Shown here in pieces: positions 18,193 to 50,752 of a DNA stretch of 57,147 bases. The translations under genes and the position numbers were made by a program. Within the stretch, counting starts at the first letter, position 1, and each line of letters starts with the position of its first letter. The notes under the pieces are model-generated. The model worked only from the letters and a program-made list of their open reading frames with translations, made no database searches and was not told where the DNA came from. Source of the DNA: an uncultured Thioalkalispiraceae bacterium (GTDB lineage: Bacteria; Pseudomonadota; Gammaproteobacteria; UBA6429; Thiohalophilaceae); contig CAZEZI010000001.1 in NCBI GenBank assembly GCA_964516315.1, positions 1 through 57,147 of the forward strand, given 5' to 3'.

Positions 18193-18213
18193 CTGGATGC
18201 AACCTGGGTGACA
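18193..18213 (-). promoter_or_regulatory. Island cis-element copy A (gene-direction TGTCACCCAGGTTGCATCCAG)
   Basis: This 21-mer is identical to the one at 25274-25294. Its centre lies about 80 nt upstream of the ATG at 18125. Confidence 0.6.
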
Positions 18214-18327
18214 AAGGATGGGTTGATATAGCTGGATTTAACATCGACATACGTCGGTGTTTCTTTTATTCGCACAGGTGGCCACTCGTTCAAGACAGGC
18301 TCCGACCGTTTACCCTGTTGCCACCAG

Positions 18328-18648
18328 TTAATCGTGAATAATTAATCGGTGGTTACTAGAATCGACATCGATAACCATCCCCGCCATTTTCGCTGCTGAA
18401 CCGATATCATTCAGTGCAGGGATTGCATTCTGTTTTGCCAGTATTGACAGTGCGGTGTCTGGCGCACAACCGATCAGTAAGCTGGATTTTTCCTGATAAT
18501 CACAGACATCAGGATCCAGATCAAAATTAAAATTTTCCGGTATTAATAATATGACAGGCTCTTCATGCATAATCTGTGCTTTGATTCTGGACAGGGTGGC
18601 CTTGTCATCATTCCAGTCAATTTTGGGCATATTGCTATAGTCACGCAT
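18328..18648 (-). CDS. Hypothetical protein (106 aa)
   Basis: ORF co-directional with and 59 nt downstream of the aldolase gene. It is visibly more AT-rich than its neighbours. No motif recognised. Confidence 0.45.
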   Translation of the reverse strand: MRDYSNMPKIDWNDDKATLSRIKAQIMHEEPVILLIPENFNFDLDPDVCDYQEKSSLLIGCAPDTALSILAKQNAIPALNDIGSAAKMAGMVIDVDSSNHRLIIHD

Positions 18649-18707
18649 AGTATTCTCCGTCTCTGTTTAGTATGTGGTAACAATTCAAGGTTAATATATT
18701 ATTTGCA

Positions 18708-19769
18708 TCAATCATTAGATGCCTCCATGTCGGGGGTGTACTGACCGAGTTGGGCGAGGCTGTTCAATCTGGCACGTTTTAGCAGTGCCTGTTGTGCGGC
18801 AGTTATATTTTCTTTTTTCCCCATCCATGCATGCAGTGCGTTTTGTTGTAGCGCGCGCCCATAGGAAATACTTAATTGCCAGGGGGTGTGCTGACCCTGC
18901 TGATTGATGGCATTTAGATTGACGGTAGCTTCTTCAGGTTCCTGGCCGCCGGAAAGAAAATTGATGCTTGGCACTGCTGCCGGTACGGTATGGCGTAGTA
19001 CCTTCAGGGTGGCGGCGGCCACTTCACTCGATTCGGCATGCCGGCAGTCCTTGCCTGGCAGGATCATATTGGGTTTGAGGATCATTAGTTCCAGTGTGAC
19101 ATGGTGGCGGTGCAAGGCATGGAATACCGCATGTTGAACTGCCTCTGTGACCTCGGCATGGCGCTCGATGTCATGATCACCATCCATTAACACCTCTGGT
19201 TCCACAATCGGCACCAGGCCTTCTTCCTGACAAACAGCGGCATAGCGGGCCAGCATTTCGGCGTTGGCCTCTATGCCGTGTTGGCTGGGTAGATGTTTGT
19301 CAATGGCATAGACTTCACGCCATTTGGCGAAGCGTGCACCTTGTTGTTTATAGCCGCGTAGACGCTCAGCCAGGCCGTCCAGCCCCTGGGTGATCAGGTC
19401 GCCGGGCGATAAGGCCAGCGGGATCTTGCCCTTGTCGACCTTGATGCCGGGTACAATGTTCTGTGCCCAGGCCGCCTCTGGAATGGCTTTGCCCTCATCG
19501 GTTTTTTGCTCCAAGGTTTCCTCAAACAAAATAATACCACTGATGTACTGGCCGAGCCCCTTCGTGGTTACCAGCAGACTGCGCCATGCACGCCGGTTCT
19601 CTTTGGTGGATTCAGTATTGATAGCCCTGAAACGTTTGGCAATGGTCGGTGAGCTTTCGTCAGCGGCCAGTATGCCGTGCTCCTTTTGCACCATGTCAGC
19701 GATGGTGGTTTCAAGGTCTGTTATGTATTGCATTGTCTTTCTCATGATTGTGGATGTCCTGATACTCAT
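18708..19769 (-). CDS. fba: Class I fructose-bisphosphate aldolase
   Basis: GILAADESSPTIAKRF signature plus full-length class I pattern. The ATG at 19769 overlaps the lpd stop (ATGA). Internal ATGs at 19745 and 19733 are alternative starts. Confidence 0.9.
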   Translation of the reverse strand: MSIRTSTIMRKTMQYITDLETTIADMVQKEHGILAADESSPTIAKRFRAINTESTKENRRAWRSLLVTTKGLGQYISGIILFEETLEQKTDEGKAIPEAAWAQNIVPGIKVDKGKIPLALSPGDLITQGLDGLAERLRGYKQQGARFAKWREVYAIDKHLPSQHGIEANAEMLARYAAVCQEEGLVPIVEPEVLMDGDHDIERHAEVTEAVQHAVFHALHRHHVTLELMILKPNMILPGKDCRHAESSEVAAATLKVLRHTVPAAVPSINFLSGGQEPEEATVNLNAINQQGQHTPWQLSISYGRALQQNALHAWMGKKENITAAQQALLKRARLNSLAQLGQYTPDMEASND

Positions 19770-21178
19770 GTATTTGATTGATGTTTTGCCATGGTTGCCC
19801 GTACTGCCTGCACAAAAGATTCTGACAGAGTTGGGTGTGGGTGTATGGCGCCGGCAATAGCCTCCAGCGGCAGCCCCGATTTGATGAGTACGGCGGCTTC
19901 GCCCATAAGATCACTAGCACCTTCTACCAGGGCATGCATGCCAAGCACCTTGTGATTTGATTTATCAAAGATAATTTTTAGTGCCCCGGTATTTCGACCG
20001 GCAATCTGGGCGCGGGCATCCTGGTGGAAATCATAACGGGCAGTGCCGACATCGATACTGGCCTCTTGTGCCTGTGTTTCGGTCAGGCCTGCCATAGCCA
20101 GCTCCGGTTCACTAAAAATAACAGCCGTATTGGTGGATGGATCGGGAAACGAAACCGACTGACCAAGTAAATGGCGAGCCAGCATCAGGCCCTGAGCAGT
20201 TGCCCAATGAGCAAACATCGGTTGGCCGATAACATCGCCGGCGGCATATATACCGGCTGCAGTGGTTTGCAGTTTGGCGTCTACCTGGATGCCATACTTG
20301 TCATGCATAACCGTTGTATTTTCTAGCCCCAGGCCCTTGATATTGGGTCGGCGACCAGCCGCCACCAGTACAGTATCGGTAAAGCGGTGCTGTTTTTTCC
20401 CGCTGGTCGGGAGGTATTCTACATAGACGCTCTGACCCGAGTGGGTGATACTGTTCACTTGGCAGCTGGTGTGGATCTCGATGCCGTCCGCCTGCATGCG
20501 CTGTCGCAGCTGTCCGGCTAGCTCTTCGTCCACGTGTTTCAGGAGACGCGGCGCGGCCTCAAGTACCATGACCCGACTGCCAAAGGTTTGAAATACCTGC
20601 CCTAATTCTACCCCGATGGGGCCGCCACCGATGATGATCAGGTCTTTCGGTATGTGGTCGATAGCAAGGATTGCCCCACTGTCCAGTACCCGTGGATGAT
20701 CGATACCCCTGATGGGCGGACGGAAGGGCACCGAGCCGGTGGCGATCACCGCCTGTTCGAAATGGATGCGCTGGACGTTTCCCTCGGCCGTGTTGATCTC
20801 GGCTTCACGGGAATGAAGAAACTGCGCCATTCCCTGTACGTAGTCCAGTGTGGCGAGATCTTGCACTCGTGCCAGAGCCGCGTTGCTGCGGCGCTGGAGT
20901 ATGACACGCTTTCGTTCCTGGATGGCATACCAATCGACGCGAGCATCCTGGGTCGGCAAGCAAAGCCCGAAATCTGCGGCCTCGCGTAATTCGCGCAAGC
21001 GGCGCGCAGATTCGCGCAGGATCTTCGATGGGATACAACCTTCAAACAGACAGGTACCGCCAAGGCCAGCGCCAGATTCAACCAGCAATACCTGTTTACC
21101 TGCACTGGCTAATGCCATGGCAGTGGGTGTGCCGCCTGGTCCACCACCAATAATTAGAAAATCATAATGAGTTTTCAT
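19766..21178 (-). CDS. lpd: Dihydrolipoyl dehydrogenase-family flavoprotein disulfide reductase
   Basis: FAD motif IIGGGPGG, redox centre GGTCLFEGCIPSK, NAD motif IIGGGPIGVE, and C-terminal HPHPTLSE His-Glu pair. Confidence 0.85.
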   Translation of the reverse strand: MKTHYDFLIIGGGPGGTPTAMALASAGKQVLLVESGAGLGGTCLFEGCIPSKILRESARRLRELREAADFGLCLPTQDARVDWYAIQERKRVILQRRSNAALARVQDLATLDYVQGMAQFLHSREAEINTAEGNVQRIHFEQAVIATGSVPFRPPIRGIDHPRVLDSGAILAIDHIPKDLIIIGGGPIGVELGQVFQTFGSRVMVLEAAPRLLKHVDEELAGQLRQRMQADGIEIHTSCQVNSITHSGQSVYVEYLPTSGKKQHRFTDTVLVAAGRRPNIKGLGLENTTVMHDKYGIQVDAKLQTTAAGIYAAGDVIGQPMFAHWATAQGLMLARHLLGQSVSFPDPSTNTAVIFSEPELAMAGLTETQAQEASIDVGTARYDFHQDARAQIAGRNTGALKIIFDKSNHKVLGMHALVEGASDLMGEAAVLIKSGLPLEAIAGAIHPHPTLSESFVQAVRATMAKHQSNT

Positions 21179-21225
21179 GTCAGTTGTTCCTTGTCGATAT
21201 TTGTATTTTACATACTATTTTTCCA

Positions 21226-23610
21226 CTATTGCCCCCAGCTCCAGTCACGAATTTCCGGCATGTCTTCACCGTGCTCGGTGATGTACTGTTTGTGTTCAGT
21301 CAGCTTGTCGAGCATCTGCTGTTTCAGGTACGTGCTTCTGGAGCCTACTCCGTCTAGACGATCGATGACATCGCAGACCAGATGAAAACGATCCAGTTCA
21401 TTGAGTACGGTCATATCAAAGGGGGTGGTGGTGGTGCCTTCTTCCTTATAGCCACGCACATGCAGACCGTGGTGATTATGGCGGCGATAGGTCAGACGAT
21501 GAATCAGCCAGGGGTATCCGTGGAAAGCGAAAACAATCGGTTTACTGGTGGTAAACAGGGTATCGAAGTCCCGGTCACTCAAGCCGTTCGGGTGCTCCTC
21601 TTTGGGTTGCAGCGTCATCAGGTCGACGACATTAATCACGCGGATCTTTAATACTGGTAAGTGTTCACGCAGGATTTTGACGGCGGCCAGAGTTTCGATT
21701 GTTGGTACGTCGCCCGCGCAAGCCATAATGACATCTGGCTCATCGTCCTGATCGTTACTGGCCCATCCCCAGACACCAATTCCTTCATGACAGTGCTTGA
21801 TGGCGGCTTCAATATTCAGCCATTGCGGTTCAGGTTGCTTACCGGCGACGATTACGTTCACCCTGTTGCGACTGTTCAGGCAGCGTTCGGTGATGCAGAG
21901 GGTGGTATTGGCGTCAGGCGGCAGATAAACCCGCACAATACCCGCTTTTTTGTTGACAACATGATCAATGAAACCGGGATCCTGATGTGAAAAGCCGTTG
22001 TGATCCTGGCGCCAGACATGTGAGGTGAGCAAAATATTCAACGAGGCAATCGGGCGTCGCCAGGGTATTTCCTTGCTTACCTTAAGCCATTTGGCATGTT
22101 GGTTAAACATGGAATCGACGATATGGATGAAGGCCTCGTAACAGGAAAACCAGCCGTGCCGGCCGGTCAGCAGGTAGCCTTCCAGCCAGCCCTGGCAGGT
22201 GTGTTCTGAGAGGATCTCCATCACCCGACCGTCTGGAGCCAGATGGTCGTCATACGCATAGGTTTCAGCTTCCCAGGCTCTATTGGTGACTTCGAGCAAA
22301 GCTCCCAGCCGGTTGGAAACAGTTTCGTCCGGTCCCATCACGCGGAAGTTATGCTGCTCACTGTTCAGGGTCATGACATCGCGCAGGTATTTGCCCATGC
22401 TGCGTGTAGCCTCGCCAATGGCACCGCCGGGTGTGGCTAAATCAACAGCATAGTCACGGAAGTCTGGCAGTTTCAAATCGCGCAGTAGTAGTCCGCCGTT
22501 GGCGTGCGGGTTGCTGCCCATGCGTTGTGCACCCTCTGGCGCAAGTCTGGCCACCTCCGGCAGCAGTTGCCCCTTATTGGTGAACAAGGTGTCGGGCTGA
22601 TAGCTTTTCATCCATTGTTCCAGTACATGGATGTGCTCCGGTTTTTCCGCTAGTTGGGCAAATGGTACCTGATGGGCACGCCAGTAGTCTTCGAGTTTCA
22701 GGCCATCAAGTTCCTTCGGGCAGGTCCAGCCTTTAGGGGTGCGCAGGATGATCATCGGCCAGCGTGGACGATCGGTCTTGCCGGCATGACGTGCAGCTTC
22801 CTGAATTTCCTGAATATCATCTATAGCCTGATCCAGCGTTGCTGCCATGGCCTGATGAACAACAACCGGCTCCGATCCTTCAATCAGATACGGGCTATAG
22901 CCATAGCCCTTAAACAGGGCAACCAGTTCGTCACGACTGATGCGCGCCAGCACGGTCGGGTTGGCGATCTTGTAGCCATTGAGGTGCAGAATGGGCAGCA
23001 CAGCACCATCACGTTGTGGATCAAGAAACTTGTTGGAGTGCCATGCGGTAGCGGCGGGGCCGGTTTCTGCTTCACCATCACCGACCACGCAGGTGACGAT
23101 AAGATCCGGGTTATCGAAGGCGGCACCGTAAGCATGGCTGAGCGAGTAGCCCAGTTCTCCCCCTTCATGGATGGAGCCTGGGGTTTCCGGTGCAGTGTGG
23201 CTGGGAATACCACCGGGGAAGGAAAACTGGCGAAACAGTTTTCGCATGCCCTCTGCATCCCGGCTGATATTGGGATACAGGTCAGTGTAGCTGCCTTCAA
23301 GCCAGGTGTTGGCGACGATACCGGGTGCTCCATGGCCGGGGCCGGTGACATAAATCATGTTCAGGTTCTGTGCCTGGATAACCCGGTTGAGATGGGCGTA
23401 GATCAGGTTCAATCCCGGTGTTGTACCCCAGTGGCCTAGCAGCCGTGGTTTGATATGTTCGAGCGCCAGCGGTTGTTGCAGCAAAGGGTTATCGAGCAGA
23501 TAGATCTGACCAATAGACAGATAGTTTGCGGCCCGCCACCAGGCGTCAATGCCTTGTAGTTCGCTATCGGACAGCGGCGTTTCGGTAATGGTGGTGTGTG
23601 ATGCAATCAT
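21226..23610 (-). CDS. xfp: Phosphoketolase (xylulose-5-P/fructose-6-P)
   Basis: [18 protein letters not shown]…, [16 protein letters not shown] and other family signatures over about 790 aa. The ATG at 23610 overlaps the ackA stop (ATGA). The 57-codon upstream extension of the ORF lies inside ackA. Confidence 0.93.
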
Positions 23611-24812
23611 GACGTATTCCTTTGGTTGTGGCGTTCGAGTACACGCACAGTATGCCGGGCAATCATCGATTCCTCGTCGGTGGCGATCACCCAGGCCTGC
23701 ACCGGACTGTCTGGCCGGCTGATGCAGATCTGGCCCAGCTGGTTGGCCGCACTGTCCAGATACAGGCCGAGCCATTGACAACGTTTGACTATGGCGGCGC
23801 GGATTGGGGCAGCGTGTTCACCAATACCGGCAGTAAAAACCAGTGCATCGACACCACCCAGTGCGGCGGCCAGTGAACCGATGGCGCGCACCGTGTGATG
23901 GACAAACTGTTCAATGGCTCGTTGCGCCTGTATAGAAGAACTGGCAAGCAATTCGGCCATGTCATCCGTCTCGCCGGAGACACCCAGCAGGCCGGACTGG
24001 AAATACAGCAGATCGGAAATCTCGTCTGCCGTCATGCCCTGATCCTGCAGGTACAACACCACTGCCGGGTCGATGCTGCCACAGCGCGTGCCCATGGGAA
24101 TGCCATCCAGTGGCGTGAAGGTCATACTGGTGGCGACACTTTGGCGCTGGCTCATGGCACATAGGCTGGCACCGTGACCAAGGTGGGCAATGATGACTTT
24201 GCCATTGGCTAACTCTGCCAGGTGATCTGGCAGGACACTGGCAATGTATTCATAGGAAAGACCGTGAAAGCCGTAGCGACGAACATTATCCAGTTTCGGG
24301 TGTGAAGGTAGCGCAAAGTATTGTTCCACTGTCGGACGGTCGTGATGAAATGCCGTATCGAAACAAGCAACCTGGAGCAAGCGGGGTTGAATATCTTGAA
24401 ACGTTGTGATGCTCAGTAGACAAGCAGGTTGGTGATTCGGTGCCAGCGGGATCAGGGTTTTTAAGTAGGCGAGAGTATCATTGGTTACACGGACTGGCGT
24501 ATGGAAACGGCGTCCACCATGCACGACACGATGCCCCACGCAGGCCAGTTGTAATAATGGTATTTCTTTTGACAGCCACTCCAGCAGAATTTGCAAGGCG
24601 TGTTCGTGGCCGGAGATGGCCATATCCCGGGTATAAAACAGATCGTCACGGGCATTGTGAACATAAAACTGACCAGTGCTGCCGAACGAGGTGAACTCAC
24701 CCCGATACAAGCGTTGCGGTGTATCGGGCTCGTGGATGGTAAACAACGCAAACTTGAGGCTGGATGAACCACTGTTAATTGTTAGCAGGGATTGGGTCTG
24801 GTCGGAGTCCAT
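23607..24812 (-). CDS. ackA: Acetate kinase
   Basis: [14 protein letters not shown]-terminal signature, GHRVVHGG, and GFHGLS, over 401 aa. Confidence 0.93.
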
Positions 24813-24818
24813 GATGCA

Positions 24819-25223
24819 TCACATTCCAAAATAGGGGTGCACGGGATCGGTTTGCAGCCAGAACACGGTATCAAACAGGGACCACTGCAGAAAAATAAAA
24901 GCGACTATGGCTAGTAAAGCCATGATTACTGCGGCCAGCAGGGCATCGCCAAAGCTGTCAACGTCAAAGCCTGGAACCATAGCAGCGGTAATCTTTACCA
25001 TAAGCGCATTGATCAACAGCGCGAATAAACCAAACGTTAACACGGTCATTGGTAGTGTCAGCACCCATAACAGGGGGCGGATGAAGGCGTTAATGGTGCC
25101 CAGCACCAGGGCGGCCAGCAGTAAACCACCGGTGGATCGTGCTCGCACGCCTGGCACCAGAATAGTGACCAGCCACAACCCAGTCGCAGTGACCAACCAG
25201 ATAGCCAGCAATCCAATCAACAT
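24819..25223 (-). CDS. Phage-holin-family-4 / DUF360-type small membrane protein
   Basis: Four predicted TM helices, with NAFIRPLLWVLTLPMTVLTFGLFALLINAL typical of the YvlD/DUF360 family. It ends 6 nt upstream of ackA. Confidence 0.6.
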   Translation of the reverse strand: MLIGLLAIWLVTATGLWLVTILVPGVRARSTGGLLLAALVLGTINAFIRPLLWVLTLPMTVLTFGLFALLINALMVKITAAMVPGFDVDSFGDALLAAVIMALLAIVAFIFLQWSLFDTVFWLQTDPVHPYFGM

Positions 25224-25273
25224 GAGGAAACCTTTTGATTAACAGACCTGAAGTATGCGCAGATAAGGTGGTG

Positions 25274-25294
25274 CTGGATGCAACCTGGGTGACA
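25274..25294 (-). promoter_or_regulatory. Island cis-element copy B (identical 21-mer to copy A)
   Basis: The centre lies about 63 nt upstream of the ATG at 25223 and about 80 nt from the divergent ATG at 25367. Confidence 0.6.
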
Positions 25295-25366
25295 GTGATT
25301 TAACTTTGGTTTTGATGTACTACATTACATTAAGAAAATGAATTTCTCATAGAGATATAACAGGAG

Positions 25367-25753
25367 ATGATGATGACAATACAATTTAGCTGTATCGAAA
25401 TCGAGGAAAACAGTTGGGATAATATTTTGTTCGTACGTTTGTCTGGTAAGTTGACCAAAGAGGATTACGAACAATTCGTGCCTGAAATTGAACGTATGAT
25501 GAAGGCACATGACAAGGTTTATATCCTGGTGGAACTGGAGAATTTCCATGGCTGGACAGTTGCTGCAGCCTGGGAGGATACCAAATTTGGGATACGCCAT
25601 TTCAATGACATTGAACGCATCGCAATCGTTGGAGACGCGGCCTGGGAAAAAGGCATAGCGTTGCTGCTCAAACCCTTTACGAAAGCAAAAGTGAAGTATT
25701 TTGATAGCAGTCAAATGGTTGCTGCCAAAACGTGGATTATGGAAAGCCAGTAA
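25367..25753 (+). CDS. STAS/SEC14-like (SpoIIAA-like, DUF3478) protein
   Basis: The pattern …ILFVRLSGKLTKEDYEQFVPEIE…VYILVELENFHGWT…DIERIAIVGD… is typical of this family. Confidence 0.6.
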   Translation: MMMTIQFSCIEIEENSWDNILFVRLSGKLTKEDYEQFVPEIERMMKAHDKVYILVELENFHGWTVAAAWEDTKFGIRHFNDIERIAIVGDAAWEKGIALLLKPFTKAKVKYFDSSQMVAAKTWIMESQ

Positions 25754-28027: not shown

Positions 28028-28067
28028 AGGGTTGTCTCGATGCAAAGCTTTGGCGGTGGTGCAGGCC

Positions 28068-28085
28068 GGGATGACCTGGGTGGCA
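28068..28085 (-). promoter_or_regulatory. Degenerate copy of the island cis-element (TGCCACCCAGGTCATCCC in gene direction)
   Basis: It shares CAC-CCAGG-T…CATCC with copies A and B but is 2 nt shorter. It lies 40-60 nt upstream of the glgX ATG. Confidence 0.3.
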
Positions 28086-28151
28086 GATAAGCTTGCAGGA
28101 ATAGACTGTGTATACCGAAATGTTTAATCATGTGCGGTAGAGGATGAATGT

Positions 28152-38772: not shown

Positions 38773-38777
38773 CCTTC

Positions 38778-39356
38778 ATGATTGATCTTTTTACGAATTT
38801 TCATTCGTTCCTCTCGCACTATGGTTTGATTATTGTCTTTGTTGGTGCAGTACTGGAGGGTGAAACTGTTATTCTTCTGGTGGGTGTGCTCTACCATCAA
38901 GGTACTTTATCTTTTGAATTGACTATCATGGTGGCTGCCCTGGGTGCCTTTACCGGAGACCAATTCTGGTTCTATCTCGGGCGTCGCTATGGGCAGGGTG
39001 TTTTATCGCGATTTCCGAAACTGGTGAAACAGGCAGACAAGGTGCGACCTTGGGTGAAACAAAAGTCTGACTGGATTGCTGTTGGCTCCCGCTTTGTCTA
39101 TGGCTCCCGTATCGCCGCCCCGATGTTACTGGGTATGAATGGCTATTCACCAATGCGTTTTGCGTTGTTCAATAGTCTCAGTGCAAGCGTATGGGCGATG
39201 GCAGTTGTGGGTGTAGGCTATCTTGTTGGTGCTAGCACCGAACAGCTCTTTGGTCGGATCAAACATATCGAGCAATTGTTGCTGGTCATTATTCTGGTGA
39301 TGTTGGTTCGATGGTGGTATCGATATAAAAAATTATCCCATGGTGCAGGCAAGTAA
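38778..39356 (+). CDS. DedA-family membrane protein
   Basis: The pattern VFVGAVLEGETVILLVG…GAFTGDQFWFYLGRRYG is typical of DedA/SNARE-associated proteins. Confidence 0.8.
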   Translation: MIDLFTNFHSFLSHYGLIIVFVGAVLEGETVILLVGVLYHQGTLSFELTIMVAALGAFTGDQFWFYLGRRYGQGVLSRFPKLVKQADKVRPWVKQKSDWIAVGSRFVYGSRIAAPMLLGMNGYSPMRFALFNSLSASVWAMAVVGVGYLVGASTEQLFGRIKHIEQLLLVIILVMLVRWWYRYKKLSHGAGK

Positions 39357-39357
39357 C

Positions 39358-40931: not shown

Positions 40932-40947
40932 TGTAACTTGGGTTGCT
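40932..40947 (+). promoter_or_regulatory. Cis-element-like site (TGTAACTTGGGTTGCT) upstream of the BON…ATPase gene array
   Basis: It matches the TGTCAC-N5-TTGC frame at 9 of 10 defined positions (A for the C of the first half-site), in the same orientation as the downstream genes, about 140 nt before the ATG at 41079. A 7-bp hairpin CTGACAG/CTGTCAG (40946-40966) follows. Confidence 0.4.
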
Positions 40948-41078
40948 GACAGTCCTCCCCTGTCAGGATTATCGTGTAAACCAAGCACTCGATCTCTATT
41001 TTCAAATGAGATATCTCGATACACGCCCCATCAGAGAACGGCAAATTTGATTTCAGCTTAATTTAAGAGGAAAGACTT

Positions 41079-42608: not shown

Positions 42609-42672
42609 GTGATGCATGGGGCGGGGTCGGGCCTCTGAACTCGGCTCCGTCGGGTAATCAACGGGGGAATTT

Positions 42673-43107
42673 ATGAATAAACTACTTATCATCATCCTGG
42701 GTACGACGTTGCTTGTTCTTGGCGGGTGCGCCAGTAGCGGTGTCACCGAGGTCAGACCTGGTTCGACGGCTTATCTCATGCACTATGAGGATGGCAGAAT
42801 CACCGGCATTAAGCATGTTGTCATTCAGGATACCGGTATGGGTGGCTTTCTCGGCACCATTGCGGGTGCGGTACTTGGCTCAACCATGGGGCGTGGTCAC
42901 GGCAATGCGCTGGCGACACTAGGGGGTGGGTTGCTGGGTGCCTATGTCGGGAATGAGGCTGGCAAGGCGAACGCCCAGGAACTAATGGTCGATCTGAACA
43001 ATGGTGACTCGGTCGTCGTTATTGCCAAAGGTCAAAAATTTGTGGTGGGGCAGCATGTCAGAATCGTCCTTAAGGACGGCATAGTCGTGTCGGTGGAGCA
43101 CAATTGA
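42673..43107 (+). CDS. Outer-membrane lipoprotein, glycine-zipper (SlyB/Pcp-like)
   Basis: Lipobox LVLGGC and a glycine zipper GGFLGTIAGAVLGSTMG…GGGLLGAYVG. Confidence 0.75.
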   Translation: MNKLLIIILGTTLLVLGGCASSGVTEVRPGSTAYLMHYEDGRITGIKHVVIQDTGMGGFLGTIAGAVLGSTMGRGHGNALATLGGGLLGAYVGNEAGKANAQELMVDLNNGDSVVVIAKGQKFVVGQHVRIVLKDGIVVSVEHN

Positions 43108-43157
43108 TCGACGTAAAACCCATCCTGGAAAATAAGGCTAAAAACAGGAGAATAAAA

Positions 43158-43457
43158 GTGAGCACACCCCCCATTATCAATGAAAAAATTCTGGGTAAGT
43201 TTGGATCCTACACCTTTGTAACGGGGATTCTGCTGGTTGCGCTGGGTACCCTGGCTGTTTTCCTGCCCAGAGTGGTGTCGCTGGGTATCGCAATTTTTGC
43301 CGCCTGGCTGTTGCTTATTGGTGTCGGTTTGTTGATGTTGTTTTATCCAGTCATAGGCGTGGCGGCCGTAGGTATGTGTATCAGCATTAGCCTGTTGCTC
43401 GATGGCTGGGCGTTATTGGCCATCAGCTGGACGTTACAAAAAGGCGCAAAAGAATGA
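43158..43457 (+). CDS. Small membrane protein (possibly DUF308/HdeD-like)
   Basis: Three hydrophobic helices. The GTG at 43158 is preceded by AGGAG. The stop overlaps the eno ATG (ATGA). Confidence 0.45.
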   Translation: MSTPPIINEKILGKFGSYTFVTGILLVALGTLAVFLPRVVSLGIAIFAAWLLLIGVGLLMLFYPVIGVAAVGMCISISLLLDGWALLAISWTLQKGAKE

Positions 43458-44764
43458 ACCGTCGATTTGTCATTGAATCGGTTATGGCATGCCAGATCCT
43501 CGATTCCCGCGGCAACCCCACCGTGGAGGTGGAATGCGAACTCGCAGACGGCACTTGCGTCCGCGCCGCTGTGCCTTCCGGGGCCTCGACCGGCAGCCGT
43601 GAGGCGGTGGAGCTGCGCGACGGTGATGCCGAGCACTATCGTGGCAAGGGCGTCCTGCAGGCAGTGGCCAATGTTAATGAGATCATCGCGCCAGCACTTC
43701 AGGGCAGGGATGTGCGCCGGCAGGCTGAAATCGACCAGAGCATGATCGAACTGGATGGCACGCCGAACAAGGCGCGTCTGGGAGCCAACGCGATTCTCGG
43801 TGTCTCATTGGCCGTGGCGCGTGCCGGCGCGGTCGCCAGCGAATTGCCGTTATATCAGTACCTCGGTGGCCCAGGTGCGACGCGTCTGCCGGTACCCCAC
43901 ATGAATATCCTCAACGGTGGCGTGCACGCCCACTGGCAAGGGGCGGACTTTCAGGAATTCATGATTGCGCCCTTTGGCGCAGACAGTTTCAGTCAGGCGC
44001 TGGAGTGGGGCAGTGAGGTCTATCATGCTTTGCAGGCCTTGCTGGAAAAGAAGGGGCTCTCCATTGGTATTGGTGACGAGGGTGGTTTTGTACCGCAAGT
44101 CTCTTCCAACGAAGAGCCCTTTGAGCTAATTGTGAAGGCCATCCACAGTGCGGGCCTGCGGCCGGGACAGGATGTGGGTATCGCCTGCGATCCGGCCTCC
44201 AGTGAATTTTATGAAAACGGCGAGTATCACTTGCGCAGCGAGAACCGCCGCCTGGATTCCGCCGCGATGACCGCCTATTACGCCAGGTTGATCGACTGTT
44301 ACCCGCTGGTGCTGCTGGAAGATGGCATGGCTCAGGATGACTGGGCGGGCTGGAAAATTCATTTCGCGGAACTGGGTGCACGCATCGAGCTGGTGGGCGA
44401 TGATGTGTTCTGCACCAATCCAGAGATTATCGCCCGGGGTATCAAAGACAACATCGCCAACGCCGTGCTCATCAAGCTCAACCAGATCGGCACCCTGACG
44501 GAGACCATCGCCGCCACCCGCCTTGCCCGAAATCACGGTTGGGGCGCTTTTGTTTCGCACCGCTCGGGGGAAACAGTGGACAGCTTTATCGCCGATATGA
44601 CCGTCGCCCTGGACACCGGCCACCTTAAGACCGGGGCACCTGCGCGTGGTGAGCGGGTGGAGAAATACAATCAGTTGCTGCGTATCGAACAGCAACTGGG
44701 AAGGGCGGCCACCTACGCTGGTTCTGGTGCATACGTGCGCAACCCGCAGAGACAAACCCCGTGA
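43454..44764 (+). CDS. eno: Enolase
   Basis: ILDSRGNPTVEVE, GASTGSREA, and the C-terminal SHRSGETVDSFIADM signature. Confidence 0.95.
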   Translation: MNRRFVIESVMACQILDSRGNPTVEVECELADGTCVRAAVPSGASTGSREAVELRDGDAEHYRGKGVLQAVANVNEIIAPALQGRDVRRQAEIDQSMIELDGTPNKARLGANAILGVSLAVARAGAVASELPLYQYLGGPGATRLPVPHMNILNGGVHAHWQGADFQEFMIAPFGADSFSQALEWGSEVYHALQALLEKKGLSIGIGDEGGFVPQVSSNEEPFELIVKAIHSAGLRPGQDVGIACDPASSEFYENGEYHLRSENRRLDSAAMTAYYARLIDCYPLVLLEDGMAQDDWAGWKIHFAELGARIELVGDDVFCTNPEIIARGIKDNIANAVLIKLNQIGTLTETIAATRLARNHGWGAFVSHRSGETVDSFIADMTVALDTGHLKTGAPARGERVEKYNQLLRIEQQLGRAATYAGSGAYVRNPQRQTP

Positions 44765-45444
44765 GCCAGCTGTTTCTGGTCAGGCACGGCGAGTCGATCT
44801 GGAACCTGCAAAACAGGTTCACCGGCTGGGTGGATGTCTCTCTTAGTCCCAAGGGCGTGATTGAAGCTCAGCAGGCGGCGGTATTGCTGACTGAGGAACA
44901 TTTTGATGTCGCCTTTACCTCAATGTTGCTGCGGGCGCAGGATAGCCTGTACGAGATATTAAGGCAGAACCGTCACTGTGCGCAGTATGTGCGCGTGCAT
45001 GAACAGAGCAGTGAATGGTACGAACACTTTATTCCGGCTGAAGGTGATACGAATGAATTAAAAATTCATGTCTCGGAAAAACTCAACGAGCGTTACTACG
45101 GCGATCTGCAAGGTATCAATAAAGACTGGGCTGGCAAGCACTACGGAGCGGAACAGGTACACCTTTGGCGTCGCAGTTATGACGCTCCACCGCCCAACGG
45201 TGAGAGTCTGAAAATGACGGCGGCAAGAACCCTGCCTTATTATCACGAGTGCATTGTTCCGCATCTCCACAATGGTGAGAGCGTACTGATTTCCGCTCAC
45301 GGCAATTCTCTGCGAGCCATCATCATGCACATCGAGCAGATGACATCGCAGCAGATTATTGACTACGAGCTGGCAACAGGCGTGCCCCATTTGTACGTAT
45401 TTGATGATGACCTGCATCTCATCAAAAAACAGATTTTTTTCTAA
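44761..45444 (+). CDS. gpmA: 2,3-bisphosphoglycerate-dependent phosphoglycerate mutase
   Basis: LVRHGESIWNLQNRFTGWVDVSLSPKG and the histidine phosphatase core. The GTG start overlaps the eno stop (GTGA). Confidence 0.9.
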   Translation: MSQLFLVRHGESIWNLQNRFTGWVDVSLSPKGVIEAQQAAVLLTEEHFDVAFTSMLLRAQDSLYEILRQNRHCAQYVRVHEQSSEWYEHFIPAEGDTNELKIHVSEKLNERYYGDLQGINKDWAGKHYGAEQVHLWRRSYDAPPPNGESLKMTAARTLPYYHECIVPHLHNGESVLISAHGNSLRAIIMHIEQMTSQQIIDYELATGVPHLYVFDDDLHLIKKQIFF

Positions 45445-45460
45445 TTCCAAACGAGAGGAA

Positions 45461-46003
45461 ATGACAATGACTGAACAGAGCAATCATTTTGTGGGCGCCG
45501 TGTTTGATAGTTCCGATAATGCTCATGCTGTGGTCGAGGAGATGATTGAGCACGATTTTCCAATGGATCAGGTTTCCATCCTGCACAAAGCAGGCGGGCA
45601 GGGTGATGACTTTCTCGGCATTGCCTATACCAACGAAAAAGAGCGCTTCAAAGTCTGGGGCGTCGAGGGTGCGTTATGGGGTTCGTTGGGCGGGCTGTTG
45701 GCTGGCACCGCTGGACTGTTTTTATTGCCTGGTATTGGATCGGTGCTCATCGCCGGGCCGTTGGTCAATGCCCTCGCTGGTGGTGCTGTCGGTGCAGGTG
45801 TGATGACGACTGGCGCGGTGGCCACTCATCTGAGTATTGCATTGCGTCGCCTGGGGATTCCCGCAGACAAGCTGGAGATACTTCATCAGGCTATTATGGA
45901 TGGCAAGACAGTCCTGTTGATGCACTGTGGCAATGGTGCCCCCGAAGTCTGGCGTCAACGCCTGGCCTGGATCGGGGCGAATCCCGTTTTCACCATGCCA
46001 TGA
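45461..46003 (+). CDS. YflT/general-stress-protein-like protein with a central glycine-zipper segment
   Basis: VGAVFDSSDNAHAVVEEMIEHDFPMDQVSIL, then a Gly-rich hydrophobic region, then GIPADKLEILHQAIMDGKTVLLMH. ATG at 45461 with a GAGAGGA RBS. Confidence 0.6.
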   Translation: MTMTEQSNHFVGAVFDSSDNAHAVVEEMIEHDFPMDQVSILHKAGGQGDDFLGIAYTNEKERFKVWGVEGALWGSLGGLLAGTAGLFLLPGIGSVLIAGPLVNALAGGAVGAGVMTTGAVATHLSIALRRLGIPADKLEILHQAIMDGKTVLLMHCGNGAPEVWRQRLAWIGANPVFTMP

Positions 46004-46063
46004 GCGACCATGACGGTTGTCTTGCTAGTTAAAAACAGTTTCCATCAATAAAAGGAAAATAAA

Positions 46064-46741
46064 ATGAATCGAAAACTAACACACATTGGTAAATCCCTTT
46101 TACGAGTATGCATCCCTTTCCTGGCTCTGTCGTTTAGCTTGCCGGCTGTCGCCGCTGCACCTGTGGCTTCGCCAAAAGCAGGGGAATATTGTCCGGGGTC
46201 GGATATTCTACTGGTTGCTGCGGAAGAACTCTCCGCCAGCCTTGATCTGGTCATGCATTCCAGAGCTGCGGCATTACATAAAAATCAGGTGACGGCGATC
46301 AGTGAACTCACCGCTGTTGGCACGACCTTGCACCTGGTTGCCAGTCGTGGTGCGGCAGCCCGTACCAACCTGCTGATTGACGCCATCATACAGTCCAGGG
46401 TGGGCGAGGATTATGCGCAGATGTTGACATGGTTCCCCTTATTACACACCTCTATGTTGACGCTGTCGGATGATGTAACGGTGAGTGCTGCTGAAGATTG
46501 GGTTGGCGATGCCGAGGACATTTTGCAGGGTAACAAAGACGGGAACTTTGAAAAATCTCTCAAAGAGGCGCGCCATATGCTGGCATGTGACAGCCTTGAT
46601 ATTCCTCTGCAACAGGCGATAGCGGAGCAGGGCAAGCTGCTGGAACAGCTAGGAAAGGGCATAAAAAACGACAGCTACGATGCGCTTCTCGATTCGTTGC
46701 GCAGAGCCTTGGCCTATGTCCTGAAAAACAGCCAGAAGTGA
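46064..46741 (+). CDS. Hypothetical secreted protein
   Basis: Signal peptide (…LALSFSLPAVAAAP) and a predicted all-helical remainder. No family recognised. Confidence 0.55.
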   Translation: MNRKLTHIGKSLLRVCIPFLALSFSLPAVAAAPVASPKAGEYCPGSDILLVAAEELSASLDLVMHSRAAALHKNQVTAISELTAVGTTLHLVASRGAAARTNLLIDAIIQSRVGEDYAQMLTWFPLLHTSMLTLSDDVTVSAAEDWVGDAEDILQGNKDGNFEKSLKEARHMLACDSLDIPLQQAIAEQGKLLEQLGKGIKNDSYDALLDSLRRALAYVLKNSQK

Positions 46742-46842
46742 GCTTCGCTTCAACCTGACAAATTGTTTTAGACACCCATCATCATAGATAAATATGGGAT
46801 AGGTGCAGTTAATGAAATGCCTAAGTAGATAAGGAGTTCATC

Positions 46843-49302
46843 ATGACCGAGGCAACCACAGACACTGAAACGCCAATGCAGGGCCTTAGTTCGGCGCAGG
46901 CCGCGGAACGTCTGGAACAATATGGGCCCAATGCGCTACAGGAGAAAAAAACCTCACCATTGCTGCGCCTGCTAGGTTATTTCTGGGGCCCCATCCCGTG
47001 GATGATTGAGGTGGCGGCCATTCTTTCGGCTGTGGTGCAGCATTGGGCCGATTTCGCGATCATCCTTGCGCTGTTGATTTTTAACGCCGGGGTTGGTTTC
47101 TGGCAGGAGTTCACCGCTGGCAACGCCGTAGAGGCACTGAAAAAGCAATTGGCCCTGAGAGCGAGGGCACTACGCGACGATATATGGCAGGAGATCGACG
47201 CCAAGTTGCTGGTACCGGGGGATGTGATCCGCATTCGTTTGGGGGATGTGATCCCGGCGGATGTGACGTTGATTGTGGGGGGATATCTGAGCGTGGATCA
47301 GTCTGCCCTCACGGGTGAATCCTTGCCTGTCACCAAGCAAGTGGGGGATGAGGCGTACTCCGGTACCGTGGCGAAACAGGGTGAGGTGGTTGCCGAGGTG
47401 AGTGTCACCGGCGGGCAGACCCGATTCGGTAAAACCGCCAGTCTGGTGGAGCAGGCGAAGACCGTTTCCCACTTCCAAAAGGCCGTACTGACCATCGGTG
47501 ACTATCTGATCTATATCAGTCTGGCGCTGGTAGTGATTCTGGTGCTGTTTCAATTACATCGTGGCACAGCGTGGTTGGAGTTGGTGCAGTTTGCGCTGAT
47601 TTTGACCGTGGCCTCCATTCCGGTGGCCATGCCGGCGGTGCTCTCCATGACTATGGCGGTGGGGGCAATGGCGTTGTCCAAACGCAAGGCCATCGTCACC
47701 CGTCTGGAATCGATTGAGGAGATGGCCAGCATGGATGTCCTTTGTTCGGACAAAACCGGCACCCTGACCCAAAATCGCCTGACCCTGGGCCAGGTGGAGC
47801 TGTTTGATGCGGCTAATGAACAGGAGGTCTTGCTGGCAGCGGCGCTGGCCTCCAAAGCCGAAGACAATGATACCATTGACCAAGCGGTGCTGGAGGGACT
47901 AAAGCGCCAGGATCTGCTCAACGCTTACCGCCAGACCGGCTACGTGCCCTTTGACCCGGTGCACAAACGTACTGAAGCCACCATAGTCGATAACCAGGGC
48001 AAGACCTTTCAGGTCACCAAGGGGGCACCCCAGGTGATCATGCAGATGTCCGGCCTCATGGCGGCCGAAAGCCAGCGGGCGCAACAGGTCGTGAATGCTT
48101 TTGCTGAGCAGGGCTATCGTGCTCTGGGCGTGGCGCACAAGGCGCAGGATACGCATCAGTGGCAATTTCTCGGTATCCTCTCGCTGTTCGATCCGCCGCG
48201 GGAGGATTCGGCGCAGACTATTGCCAGTGCCCGGGAATATGGTGTCAACATGAAGATGGTTACCGGCGACAATCAGGCCATTGCCAAACAGATTTCCGCC
48301 AAGCTTGGTCTGGGAACGAATATCCTACCTGCTGATGTACTGGCTTTGGATCAGGATGGCTTCCGGGATGCCGCCGATGGCGAGCGTGTGGAGCAGACCG
48401 ACGGTTTTGCCGAGGTCTTCCCGGAGCACAAATTCGGTATCGTCAAGTTGCTTCAGGGGCGTAACCACATTACCGGCATGACGGGCGACGGCGTCAACGA
48501 CGCCCCCGCCCTGAAACAGGCCGATGTGGGCATCGCCGTTAGCGGTGCCACTGATGCGGCACGAGCAGCGGCGGATCTGGTGCTCACCGCTCCCGGCCTG
48601 TCGGTGATAATTAATGCCATTGAGGAGGCTCGACGTATTTTTGAACGCATGAACGCCTACGCCATTTATCGTATCAGCGAAACCATCCGCATCATGTTCT
48701 TTGTGGTGTTGACGATGATATTTTTTGACTTCTATCCCATCACGGCGATCATGATCATTTTGCTCGCCTTCTTCAACGACGTGCCGATCATGGCCATCGC
48801 CTATGACCACACCGAACTGGAGAAAAAACCGGTGCGCTGGAACATGCGTCAGGTCATCACCGTGGCCACCGCCATGGGCATTGTAGGCGTGGTGGGCAGT
48901 TTCGGCATGTTACTGATCGCTATGGACTGGCTGAAACTTGATGTGGCACATATCCAGACCTATGTCTTCCTGAAAATGGCCGTGGCCGGTCACCTGGTGC
49001 TGTTCGTGGCGCGCACCAAAGGGTACTTTTGGAAACAACCCCGCCCCGCCCCCATCATGGTCTGGTCGGCGTTGATTACCAAACTGGCAGCCACTGTGCT
49101 GGCGGCTTATGGTTTTGGTCTTATTACGCCTATCAGTTGGCCAGAAATCGCCCTTATCTGGGGCTATTCTATTACTTCGGCTCTGGTGACTGACCTGGTC
49201 AAGGTTCAGGTTTATCGCCATCTGCATCATCGCACAGTGAGGCATGAAGGATTTCTTGCCCGTGTGCATCAACCGCTGCATGACTTTGGCCAAAAAAAAT
49301 AG
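46843..49302 (+). CDS. P-type ATPase, type IIIA (plasma-membrane H+-ATPase-like)
   Basis: DKTGTLT, MVTGDN and GDGVNDAPALKQADVGIAV. The N-terminal half is collinear with plant and fungal H+-ATPases (…YGPNALQEKK…LVPGDVIRIRLGDVIPAD…VDQSALTGESLPVTK…VSHFQK…). AAGGAG RBS. Confidence 0.9.
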   Translation: MTEATTDTETPMQGLSSAQAAERLEQYGPNALQEKKTSPLLRLLGYFWGPIPWMIEVAAILSAVVQHWADFAIILALLIFNAGVGFWQEFTAGNAVEALKKQLALRARALRDDIWQEIDAKLLVPGDVIRIRLGDVIPADVTLIVGGYLSVDQSALTGESLPVTKQVGDEAYSGTVAKQGEVVAEVSVTGGQTRFGKTASLVEQAKTVSHFQKAVLTIGDYLIYISLALVVILVLFQLHRGTAWLELVQFALILTVASIPVAMPAVLSMTMAVGAMALSKRKAIVTRLESIEEMASMDVLCSDKTGTLTQNRLTLGQVELFDAANEQEVLLAAALASKAEDNDTIDQAVLEGLKRQDLLNAYRQTGYVPFDPVHKRTEATIVDNQGKTFQVTKGAPQVIMQMSGLMAAESQRAQQVVNAFAEQGYRALGVAHKAQDTHQWQFLGILSLFDPPREDSAQTIASAREYGVNMKMVTGDNQAIAKQISAKLGLGTNILPADVLALDQDGFRDAADGERVEQTDGFAEVFPEHKFGIVKLLQGRNHITGMTGDGVNDAPALKQADVGIAVSGATDAARAAADLVLTAPGLSVIINAIEEARRIFERMNAYAIYRISETIRIMFFVVLTMIFFDFYPITAIMIILLAFFNDVPIMAIAYDHTELEKKPVRWNMRQVITVATAMGIVGVVGSFGMLLIAMDWLKLDVAHIQTYVFLKMAVAGHLVLFVARTKGYFWKQPRPAPIMVWSALITKLAATVLAAYGFGLITPISWPEIALIWGYSITSALVTDLVKVQVYRHLHHRTVRHEGFLARVHQPLHDFGQKK

Positions 49303-49316
49303 TGGGAGGTATCGAC

Positions 49317-50297
49317 ATGTTCCGTAGTGTTGTTTTGCTATTGAAATTTCGCCAATGCTTGGCAGACCGGATATTGCTGCCAGCGTTACTATTGATGCTG
49401 TTCGGGATTTTCCTGGCACCGGGTCATACTGCACCGGTCTCTGAAACGATGTTACCGCCCACCGGGCGTGTGGTGGTGACAGGTTCCATTGCTCTGGCGA
49501 ATCTGACCAACCAGTGGGTGGATGACTTGACCAGCCGCAATCCGGCTATTTCTATCACCGTTGCTGATCCGGGTGGTGCGGTGGGCATCGAGGCGCTGCT
49601 CAATGGTAGTGCCGATGTGGTGCTTGCCAGCAGACTCCTGAGTCAGTTGCAGATGCAGCGATTTACAGATCGTTTTGGCTATGCACCTGCTGTTGTTCCT
49701 GTTGCCATGGATGGCGTGGCAGTGTATGTCAATATCCTTAACCCGCTACGGCAGATTACCCTTACCCAGCTCGATGCCATTTACTCCACAACGCTACGCT
49801 GTGGTGCCAGCCGGCCCCTACGCAATTGGGGAGAGTTGGGCGTAAAGGGTCAGCTGGGCAATGAATCCATTGCGGCACTGGGGCTGACGGCTGCCAGTGG
49901 TGCCTATCTGATGTTCAAACACGTCGTCCTGTGTGATGGTGACTTCCGCGCCGACTTTCAGGCGCTGGTCGGCCCTGCCGCTGTGGAGGCGGCTCTGGCC
50001 GACAATGTTGCCGCTATCGGTTTTTCCAGCAGCGCACTGCGTTCGGCGGACATCCTACCACTGGCAGTTGCCAAGCGAGAGGGGCAAAGGGCTATTGCGC
50101 CTGGCGTTGAATCAATCCAGGCTCGGCGATATCCCCTTACCCGTGTTCTTGCTGTTATTCTCAATATTCCTCCTGGTGGCAATGCCGCACCAGCTGTGCA
50201 GGCCTTTCTTAATTACGCCCGCTCGGCAGCGGGGCAAGAAGTGGCGGCGAAGGCTGGTTATGTCCCTTTGCCTATCGCCGCTGAAGGTTGGCCATGA
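49317..50297 (+). CDS. PstS-family (phosphate-binding-protein-like) periplasmic protein
   Basis: A signal/TM segment, then VVVTGSIALANLTNQWVDDL…VADPGGAVGIEALLNGSADVVLASR, typical of PBP_like_2. ATG at 49317 with GGGAGG 7 nt upstream, directly after the ATPase stop. Confidence 0.65.
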   Translation: MFRSVVLLLKFRQCLADRILLPALLLMLFGIFLAPGHTAPVSETMLPPTGRVVVTGSIALANLTNQWVDDLTSRNPAISITVADPGGAVGIEALLNGSADVVLASRLLSQLQMQRFTDRFGYAPAVVPVAMDGVAVYVNILNPLRQITLTQLDAIYSTTLRCGASRPLRNWGELGVKGQLGNESIAALGLTAASGAYLMFKHVVLCDGDFRADFQALVGPAAVEAALADNVAAIGFSSSALRSADILPLAVAKREGQRAIAPGVESIQARRYPLTRVLAVILNIPPGGNAAPAVQAFLNYARSAAGQEVAAKAGYVPLPIAAEGWP

Positions 50298-50349
50298 GTA
50301 AAAACAAAGACCGCTGGCAGTTTCTTAATTAAGCAGGAGTATCCCTCCT

Positions 50350-50618
50350 TTAAGGCTGTTTGCCCATCATCCTGCCGGGGGCAGGTTTGCTTTGACCAGC
50401 CCCTTCTCGCGAATCTTCCGCATCGGCTGTGATAAGGCTTGCACCCAGACAAGTTTGGTGAAACCTGTATAGCATCTCAATATGGCGTGCCTCTGCATCA
50501 TGAATGTTAATGAATGGGCGAACTGTATCAAAGTCTTCGATAACCTGATTGTAAGTTACTATTCATCATCTAATGCTTCATGCAAGGTATTAGACTCTGC
50601 TTCATTCAATATCGTCAT
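50350..50618 (-). pseudogene. Possible frameshifted remnant of a ferritin-like (DUF2202-like) gene
   Basis: ATG at 50618 gives MTILNEAESNTLHEALDDE followed by TAG TAA. The adjacent frame continues …TYNQVIEDFDTVRPFINIHDAEARHIEMLYRF…. The combined pattern L..ALDDEY…Y..VI.DF….PF.NI..AE.RHI resembles ferritin-like DUF2202 proteins from memory. Similarity is lost after about 60 aa. Confidence 0.3.
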
Positions 50619-50736
50619 GTTAGATCTCGGTTAGCCAGGAGGGGGAATCTACTTCATACACGAATGGTGAAAAAACGGATTTCAGCATTGCATGCCTGAT
50701 GGTTTTACGAAAATAGCACAGGGGGTGTTTGAGAAG

Positions 50737-50752
50737 TGTAACTTAGGTAGCA
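50737..50752 (+). promoter_or_regulatory. Orphan cis-element-like site (TGTAACTTAGGTAGCA)
   Basis: It shares AACTTAGGT with copy C and TGTAAC with the 40932 site. It lies in the non-coding stretch between the island and tRNA-Leu. Confidence 0.3.

Follow-up and report, generated by a model that had tools for sequence, protein, structure and literature searches.

In the 57,147-nucleotide (nt) stretch of DNA analysed here (contig CAZEZI010000001.1, from an uncultured Thioalkalispiraceae bacterium; hereafter the window), a 16-base-pair (bp) dyad, TGTCAC-N4-GTGACA, recurs between the genes of a GC-rich block (the island), in some copies with one arm relaxed. The dyad is quite probably the operator of a Crp/Fnr-family activator that is encoded in the island itself (31819–32571), and which would act at class II promoters to run one co-regulated programme. 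The regulon is a conventional one and involves neither a new kind of promoter nor a new transcription mechanism. In the literature we found no description of the motif, either as TGTCA-N6-TGACA or as TGTCACNNNNGTGACA, a search by gene set returned nothing relevant, and as far as this search goes the regulator lineage, motif and regulon are previously undescribed.

We propose that the regulator dimer would bind the 16-bp dyad within an extended operator of consensus gcTGTCAC-YYRR-GTGACAgc, whose relaxed arms would be GTTGCA, GTTACA or ATGACA. The bound dyad would be centred at about −41.5 of sigma-70-type promoters with a [T/C]AnAnT −10 hexamer and without a −35 hexamer, and activation would most likely proceed by direct contact with RNA polymerase, as for class II CRP/FNR. 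Eight promoters would feed nine island transcription units. These would provide glycogen phosphorylase and debranching enzyme together with phosphoketolase, acetate kinase and aldolase; an AhpD-like gene with E1 dehydrogenase, enolase, a phosphoglycerate-mutase-like gene and a P-type ATPase; and hsp20, BON, YflT-like and STAS-like stress proteins with a permease and cardiolipin synthase. All would be switched on jointly, as a single programme of glycogen breakdown, acetate fermentation and stress genes. The model is testable in its protein, its 16-bp site, its promoter geometry and its target list. It bears on how uncultured sulfur-oxidising Gammaproteobacteria of vents and sediments, and the cultured Thiogranum longum, may switch to fermentation of stored glycogen and to stress protection.

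Sites of the dyad in the window

By exact pattern scans of the window we found TGTCACNNNNNTTGCA three times (18198, 25279 and 30764, all on the − strand) against 0.09 expected, and the perfect TGTCAC-N4-GTGACA twice (30896 and 32628) against 0.14 expected. Asymmetric copies correspond to the dyad with one arm relaxed, TGTCAC-N4-GTTGCA showing two differences from TGTCAC-N4-GTGACA, both in the same arm. These scans reproduced the five core sites of a preliminary description that had been made from the letters alone, as well as the 21-mer TGTCACCCAGGTTGCATCCAG that is identical at sites A and B (listed below). We then scanned the window with a symmetrised weight matrix for which 28 sites in loci of other genomes, and none of the window's own, had served as the training set. 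This gave nine matches of 14.1–31.7 bits (18198, 25279, 30764, 30896, 32628, 36081, 40932, 50737 and 56619), the next best reaching 7.4 bits, compared with 0.34 matches of at least 12 bits expected from Markov shuffles of the window. The eight matches within the island are all intergenic, in a block where intergenic DNA makes up 10.7% of the sequence (chance P = 1.8e-8).

Two of these eight, at 40932 and 50737 (16.5 bits each), confirm copies that had been described before, and one, at 36081–36096 (16.4 bits), was missing from the earlier list of sites. The earlier distances to start codons were right overall but some 10 nt too long. The match at 56619 lies inside the rplI coding sequence, where the codons for LGNLGD produce it by chance; as it is the sole match beyond the island, the AT-rich arms are without a genuine site, in agreement with the preliminary description. 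We rejected a variant that had been proposed before glgX (28068–28085): its score is 4.8 bits, the ~24 nt that separate it from the start codon are too few to hold a promoter, and a −10 hexamer is missing where the spacing would require one. Sites could be assigned to nine of the ~11 island transcription units. The sites, their candidate −10 hexamers (offset, nucleotides from dyad to hexamer) and the regulator gene are:

18198–18213, − strand: site A, TGTCACCCAGGTTGCA, 22.1 bits, upstream of the AhpD-like/E1alpha/E1beta operon (15694–18125, −), 72 nt from its ATG
18171–18176, − strand: candidate −10 of site A, GAGTAT, offset +21
25279–25294, both directions: site B, 25.9 bits, common to two divergent promoters
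25252–25257, − strand: leftward candidate −10 of site B, CATACT, offset +21, for the DUF360-ackA-xfp-PyrRedox-aldolase-hyp106 operon (18328–25223, −)
25316–25321, + strand: rightward candidate −10 of site B, TGTACT, offset +21, for a SpoIIAA/STAS-like gene (25367–25753, +)
30764–30779, − strand: site C, TGTCACCTAAGTTGCA, 24.4 bits, upstream of glgP(-glgX) (25973–30677, −)
30736–30741, − strand: candidate −10 of site C, TAGTTT, offset 22
30896–30911, + strand: perfect dyad, TGTCACTTGAGTGACA, 22.1 bits, upstream of hsp20 (31160–31629, +)
30933–30938, + strand: candidate −10 of the hsp20 dyad, CATTAT
31819–32571, + strand: gene of the Crp/Fnr-family regulator, 250 amino acids (aa), the proposed binder of the motif
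32628–32643, + strand: perfect dyad, TGTCACCCAGGTGACA, 31.7 bits, the best of the window, between the regulator gene and a 171-aa YflT-like gene (32729–33244, +)
32665–32670, + strand: candidate −10 of this dyad, CACACT, upstream of the 171-aa gene
33256–33271, + strand: TGTCACCCAGG-C-TTGC, probably the relic of a site, located 272 nt before ppsA and left out of the functional count
36081–36096, + strand: site TGTAACCAGAGTTGCA, 16.4 bits, upstream of the permease-DUF202-hyp186-VTT-cardiolipin synthase operon (36293–40761, +)
36118–36123, + strand: candidate −10 of this site, TATCGT, offset +21
40932–40947, + strand: site TGTAACTTGGGTTGCT, 16.5 bits, upstream of the BON/Gly-zipper/DUF308/enolase/His_Phos/P-type ATPase/PBP-like operon (41079–50297, +)
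40970–40975, + strand: candidate −10 of this site, TATCGT, offset 22, in the context caggatTATCGTG, which resembles the 36081 promoter
50737–50752, − strand (sequence read on that strand): site TGCTACCTAAGTTACA, 16.5 bits
50710–50715, − strand: candidate −10 of this site, TATTTT, offset +21, reading leftward into a frameshifted small gene (~50419–50640, −)

The copy at 33256–33271, which the preliminary description had offered as a variant before ppsA, carries a 1-bp insertion relative to the sequence of sites A and B and has no −10 hexamer at +21; it is a broken site and at best a relic. Individual arrangements recur in related loci. The divergent promoters of site B are found again in L001 and L006, and L008 has an orthologous site before glgP that matches site C. 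In L008 hsp20 is likewise preceded by an identical dyad, at the same distance from the ATG (248 nt). A dyad at the position equivalent to 32628 is present in L001–L006, L008 and L010.

Occurrence in relatives and promoter geometry

We examined the motif in relatives of the island. Our related set consisted of four genome loci reached via the regulator protein and six contigs, including Thiogranum longum, obtained by exact-sequence look-up. The dyad is present in all four loci and all six contigs, which carry regulators of 66–90% identity. Homologues of the regulator number 273 at E <= 1e-5, nearly all from uncultured vent or sediment Gammaproteobacteria, and a metagenome set was formed from 80 further independent loci with a homologue (0.8 megabases). 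Here 162 sites of at least 14 bits were found, compared with 0–4 in shuffles, and 68 of the 80 loci hold at least one. Motif and Crp/Fnr homologue co-occur in ~90 loci. Several regulators of 47–52% identity (L079, L084, L087 and L088) combine an RQV[VI]N helix with TGTCA[CT]-N4-[GA]TGACA sites of 19–26 bits; matches in other loci of this identity group are weaker, at most ~12 bits. A census of half-sites (312 tabulated) gave TGTCAC 192 times, TGTCAT 39, TGTAAC 30, TGCAAC 25 and TGGCAC not once, and the fourth base is C or A in all but three and never G.

By scoring −10-like hexamers at every offset from all sites in both directions we obtained, for the window together with L001–L009, a single −10 peak 21 nt after the dyad. 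The same distance stands out at 156 independent metagenome sites (312 site-directions), where xAxxxT occurs at offset 21 in 46% of cases compared with 4–13% at neighbouring offsets, and where the mean −10 log-odds at offset 21 has z = 8.1. These hexamers have the consensus [T/C]A-n-A-n-T. A −35 hexamer is lacking: at spacers of 16–18, TTGACA is matched at only one to three of its six positions in 135 of 143 promoters, and four matches are reached by only eight. The TTG of GTTGCA was considered as a −35 and rejected, as its spacer to the −10 would be ~20 bp. A weak dyad at 32607 (7.4 bits, 21 bp upstream of the 32628 dyad) was also tried as a tandem or class III partner and rejected; across the 143 promoters secondary sites have no preferred spacing.

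Placing the hexamer at −12 to −7 makes the dyad span −49 to −34 and therefore centres it at −41.5. According to a review, a separation of 22 bp from the site to base two of the −10 is seen in class II promoters only (PMC10187061). The sites would thus have the class II geometry of CRP and FNR, with start positions predicted from the hexamer.

The relaxed arm has a preferred side. Among sites with one arm GTTGCA or GTTACA, 23 have their only −10 hexamer beside the relaxed arm and six have it beside the strong arm (p = 0.002); for GTTGCA alone the figures are 14 and 2. Of 55 symmetric sites, 50 carry a −10 hexamer on one side and not on the other. The orientation bias is what a relaxed half-site next to the promoter would give, rather than a directional promoter element. 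A motif scan of the genome and of related genomes for enrichment, orientation and distance had been suggested in the preliminary description; in the related loci all three are now seen (162 versus 0–4 sites, the relaxed-arm bias and the +21 peak), together with the intergenic position of eight of eight sites in the window.

These data bear directly on a second reading in the preliminary description, that the asymmetric copies are sigma-54 (−24/−12) promoters in which GT replaces GG. TGTCAC-N5-TTGCA is one base off TGGCAC-N5-TTGCW, and the asymmetric copies do point towards genes, as had been claimed (23 versus 6, p = 0.002). However, we regard this reading as hardly credible. TGGCAC is absent from the 312 half-sites, and the commonest form is the true, perfect dyad, whose proximal arm GTGACA lacks the GC of a −12 element. 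Sites armed with GTTACA and GTGACA keep the same geometry, and a sigma-70-type −10 lies at a fixed distance, exactly 21 nt downstream, where a −24/−12 promoter has no need of one. The earlier remarks that GG is replaced by GT in every copy and that the island encodes no enhancer-binding protein both hold, a Pfam search finding no Sigma54_activat protein among the island genes.

Another way to read the perfect dyads is as RNA hairpins, for example an intrinsic terminator for the regulator gene, or as copies of a dispersed repeat, and not as DNA to which a protein binds. At 32623–32648, just past the regulator stop codon, the window can form an 11-bp stem followed by TTTTT, and dyads downstream of regulators are perfectly symmetric more often than other sites (61% versus 29%, p = 0.015). 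At 46 regulator-downstream sites, however, the stem is usually 6–7 bp and reaches 9 bp or more in 4%, and the next 8 nt are not enriched in T (2.3 versus 2.1 T, p = 0.55). The majority of sites, moreover, are asymmetric copies located before genes, where no other gene ends close by, and the fixed spacing to the −10 would be left unexplained. Hairpins or repeats are thus very improbable as a general account, although the copy at 32623–32648 may double as the regulator's terminator, a feature that is not conserved in relatives.

The regulator and its relation to known systems

The regulator matches the PF13545 (HTH_Crp_2) profile with 38.7 bits (cutoff 27), and its residues 7–224 align to the structures of Mycobacterium tuberculosis CRP and Corynebacterium glutamicum GlxR with E values of 2e-17 to 8e-15. 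By its sequence it is a full-length member of the Crp/Fnr family. NCBIfam offers no equivalog for it, the best match being NtcA with 28 bits against a cutoff of 245.

It belongs neither with CRP proper nor with FNR. Its helix reads R-Q-V-V-N-R and not R-E-x-x-x-R, and its half-site is not TGTGA. In the binding cassette of CRP, a Gly-Glu and an Arg-Ser/Thr pair bind the phosphate of cyclic AMP (cAMP). At these cAMP-contacting positions the regulator has other residues, IDIV...PHEM standing in place of FGEL...PRTS in M. tuberculosis CRP. Escherichia coli FNR has a set of four cysteines that ligate [4Fe-4S], an E-x-x-S-R helix and a TTGAT-N4-ATCAA site. The regulator has one conserved cysteine only (C11), and helix and motif both differ. 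Since Cys11, His99, His126 and His167 are invariant across homologues of 66–88% identity, a redox, haem or metabolite signal is possible.

The helix VGSVRQVVNRHLQ is near-invariant in 17 homologues of 66–88% identity: V204 is conserved in at least 90% of these, H210 is not listed as conserved (H/Q/Y) and the other positions are invariant. For the recognition helix GSVRQVVNRHLQ the one exception to invariance is V204. Aligned via M. tuberculosis CRP (RETVNK), R201-Q202-V-V-N-R206 corresponds to R180-E181-T-V-G-R185 of CRP. In TGTGA, the C opposite the second G is the base that CRP touches with E181 (PMC10187061), and this base pair alone is changed in TGTCA. An R-Q helix thus fits TGTCA, and the regulator would be a natural case in which the E181 position (Gln here) tracks a G-to-C change of the half-site. 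In L090 and L091 the regulators (~50% identity) have R-V instead of R-Q in the recognition helix, and a single strong site is close by, TGTAACCTGGGTTGCA in L091, whose fourth base is A instead of C; this hints at covariation of helix and motif, from too few cases to say more.

The first reading of the preliminary description, a dimer operator of the Crp/Fnr type, is thus supported by the co-occurrence with the regulator, by the −10 at +21 without a −35 and by the change in the recognition helix. Several points weigh against our version of it. The promoters are positioned by −10-like hexamers, and a site that overlaps the −35 region could in principle repress. The model offers no explanation for the particular proximal arms GTTGCA and GTTACA that recur. 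PF00027 (cNMP_binding) reaches 25.7 bits in the regulator, just under the cutoff of 27.5 (it is precomputed as present in nearly all regulator homologues), and the regulator's own 189-bp upstream spacer in the window is without a site. Lastly, all related loci were chosen via the regulator gene.

The point on repression leads to an alternative in which the dyad is a repressor operator, where the same Crp/Fnr protein or another dimer blocks polymerase at the −35 region until a signal arrives. A dyad at about −49 to −34 overlaps the place where sigma region 4 binds, and Crp/Fnr proteins can repress (PMC545781; PMC10187061). We nevertheless consider a repressor unlikely. With no recognisable −35 and many weak −10 hexamers that start with C, these promoters would be expected to be poor without an activator. 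Moreover, the spacing between site and −10 is exact to the base pair, a usual trait of activators, which must touch polymerase, whereas repressor positions vary, and the site at 25279 serves two divergent promoters at equal distance.

The way the loci were selected would equally suit another factor, encoded elsewhere, that binds the motif while the Crp/Fnr gene is its neighbour by synteny only. This is improbable in our view, as a 6-4-6 dyad with a TGT..ACA frame, placed at −41.5, is the hallmark of the Crp/Fnr family and the E-to-Q change in the helix matches the G-to-C change in the motif. The motif also persists beside several regulators that have diverged to ~50% identity, in unrelated gene neighbourhoods.

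As the operator of a Crp/Fnr-family activator, the element can be set beside several known systems. With class II promoters of E. coli CRP and FNR it shares a 16-bp TGT...ACA dyad at −41.5, a distance of 21 nt to the −10 and the lack of a −35, the start positions here being predicted ones, as well as a dimeric Crp/Fnr-family protein, encoded nearby. It differs from them in the half-site, TGTCA(C) versus TGTGA for CRP and TTGAT for FNR, in the helix, R-Q-x-x-N-R versus R-E-x-x-G-R and E-x-x-S-R, and in a regulator that has neither the cAMP-contacting residues nor the FNR cysteine cluster.

In sequence the operator is closest to those of Cmr and CooA, and in its 6-4-6 form it resembles that of Clr. 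M. tuberculosis Cmr (Rv1675c) has an experimentally defined 16-bp palindrome, TGTCA-N6-(C/T)GACA, and a regulon that overlaps the dormancy programme (PMC4705688). Compared by helix and motif, it too is a Crp/Fnr-family factor with a TGTCA-type dyad. However, its helix is GAQRPSINK (R-P not R-Q), it is actinobacterial, its targets differ and its sites occur in clusters of hundreds with no reported fixed −41.5 geometry. CooA, the carbon monoxide (CO) sensor of Rhodospirillum rubrum and Desulfovibrio, binds TGTC...GACA dyads (PMC545781). It activates a dedicated gene set and has an R-Q helix, GSSRQTTST versus GSVRQVVNR here (CooA sequence verified against PDB 1ft9), but its inner arm is TGTCGGC versus TGTCACC and overall identity is ~21%. 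The haem ligands of R. rubrum CooA are Cys75 and His77. These align with Asp89 and Val91 of the regulator, and the same (CO) sensor is therefore unsupported. Clr of Sinorhizobium meliloti recognises a 6-4-6 dyad, HGTYHC-N4-GRWACA, with conserved C6 and G11 (PMC10187061), and TGTCAC fits its left arm. Its helix is R-P-K-V-N-R, in which K197 reads C6 where the regulator has Val, and Clr binds cAMP and cGMP.

In organisation the island is comparable to the lxa locus of Burkholderia cenocepacia, where ~50 stress and survival genes (hsp20-type and universal stress proteins among them) show measured induction as a block at low oxygen and one Fnr-like inverted repeat is present at 17 intergenic points (PMC3721108). 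Both are blocks of stress and survival genes marked by a repeated intergenic dyad. The lxa motif, however, is TGA-N6-TCA (Anr/Fnr), the regulator lineage and host are others, phosphoketolase has no mention in the text of that paper (0 occurrences in PMC3721108), and induction of the island is a prediction.

Predicted target genes and the setting of the island

We recorded the first gene downstream of promoter-side sites in the other loci, where 129 such sites have a downstream open reading frame (ORF). The 171-aa gene beside the regulator is that gene at 46 of the 129. It is followed by dnaJ-like genes (12), ppsA (10), P-type ATPase (9), aldolase (5), glgP (3) and the 214-aa gene (3), with lower counts for ackA, SpoIIAA-like, glgX and DUF308 (2 each) and for xfp, enolase and BON (1 each). 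In addition to the ten promoter-side sites in metagenome loci, ppsA has an intact site in L002, L003 and L008. In L005, from T. longum (SMFX01000001.1), sites at 9914, 763 and 10822 belong to the dnaJ-ppsA-glgP operon, a SpoIIAA-Usp gene and the 171-aa gene, respectively. The same functions recur downstream of the motif in diverged genomes and are therefore wired to the same motif.

The 171-aa target has no match in Pfam or PDB. It is distantly paralogous to the 214-aa gene of the island (45359–46003, +; 28% identity, E = 1e-7), which itself has a weak YflT domain match (E = 0.01), and both are targets in relatives. With its genes for glycogen degradation, phosphoketolase and acetate kinase, lower glycolysis, chaperones, and envelope and stress proteins, the regulon may serve to survive on glycogen reserves when energy or oxygen is limiting. 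That the element ties these genes into a single regulon, as the preliminary description proposed, agrees with their conservation in relatives; direct control of glgX and ppsA in the window, which it also implied, is unsupported. glgX is probably co-transcribed with glgP.

Some promoter regions have features of their own. The −10 at 30933–30938 implies an hsp20 5′ leader of ~215 nt, and in L008 and L013 the region between dyad and start codon (30912–31159) shows ~71% conservation. The leader might have a regulatory role, for example as an RNA thermometer; an Rfam scan matched no thermometer or riboswitch family in it, the tRNA described below being the sole match. To the right of site C, at a distance of 22 nt, lies a perfect TATAAT (30802–30807, +), with no ORF evident there. 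For this reason site C may in addition promote rightward transcription in the stretch from glgP to the hsp20 dyad. The permease and BON promoters (36110–36130 and 40960–40980) have near-identical −10 contexts, caggacTATCGTGcaa and caggatTATCGTGtaa, which suggests a promoter duplication. Downstream of the 50737 site the window shares 74% identity with a gene for 69 aa in L008 (5476–5685, intact there). In the window this homologue (~50419–50640, −) contains stops and a frameshift, and looks like a decaying regulon member.

The GC-rich block (~15.7–50.3 kb) and its gene content are as first described, a Pfam profile search agreeing with the gene identifications. Its GC content is 45–57%, versus 34–41% in the left arm and 39–48% in the right arm. 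The edges lie near 15.4–15.7 kb and 50.3–51.1 kb, and a tRNA-Leu(CAG) gene (51113–51196, −) faces the right edge with its 3′ end. Contigs that carry the closest relatives of the island genes have ~50% GC throughout. This, together with the tRNA-Leu at the island edge, suggests horizontal acquisition by an AT-rich host; a chimeric assembly may be an alternative. No integrase was found, and a search at the left edge of the island for an att-type direct repeat (at least 12 nt) of the 3′ end of tRNA-Leu was negative. The entire regulon, regulator and cis-sites together, is located on this compositionally foreign island. A broader reading, possible if somewhat doubtful, is that the 35-kb block is a self-contained, horizontally transferred survival module next to tRNA-Leu in an AT-rich host. 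Its regulator would be unable to bind cAMP and might respond to a redox, haem or metabolite signal, its eight class II promoters would have moved along with it, and it would enable its host to ferment glycogen to acetate and to withstand stress when oxygen is absent or energy is short.

Within the operon leftward of site B, the longest xfp ORF (21226–23781, −) overlaps ackA (23607–24812, −) by 175 nt, and its XFP_N domain begins at residue 70. The real start of xfp is probably further downstream than that of the longest ORF.

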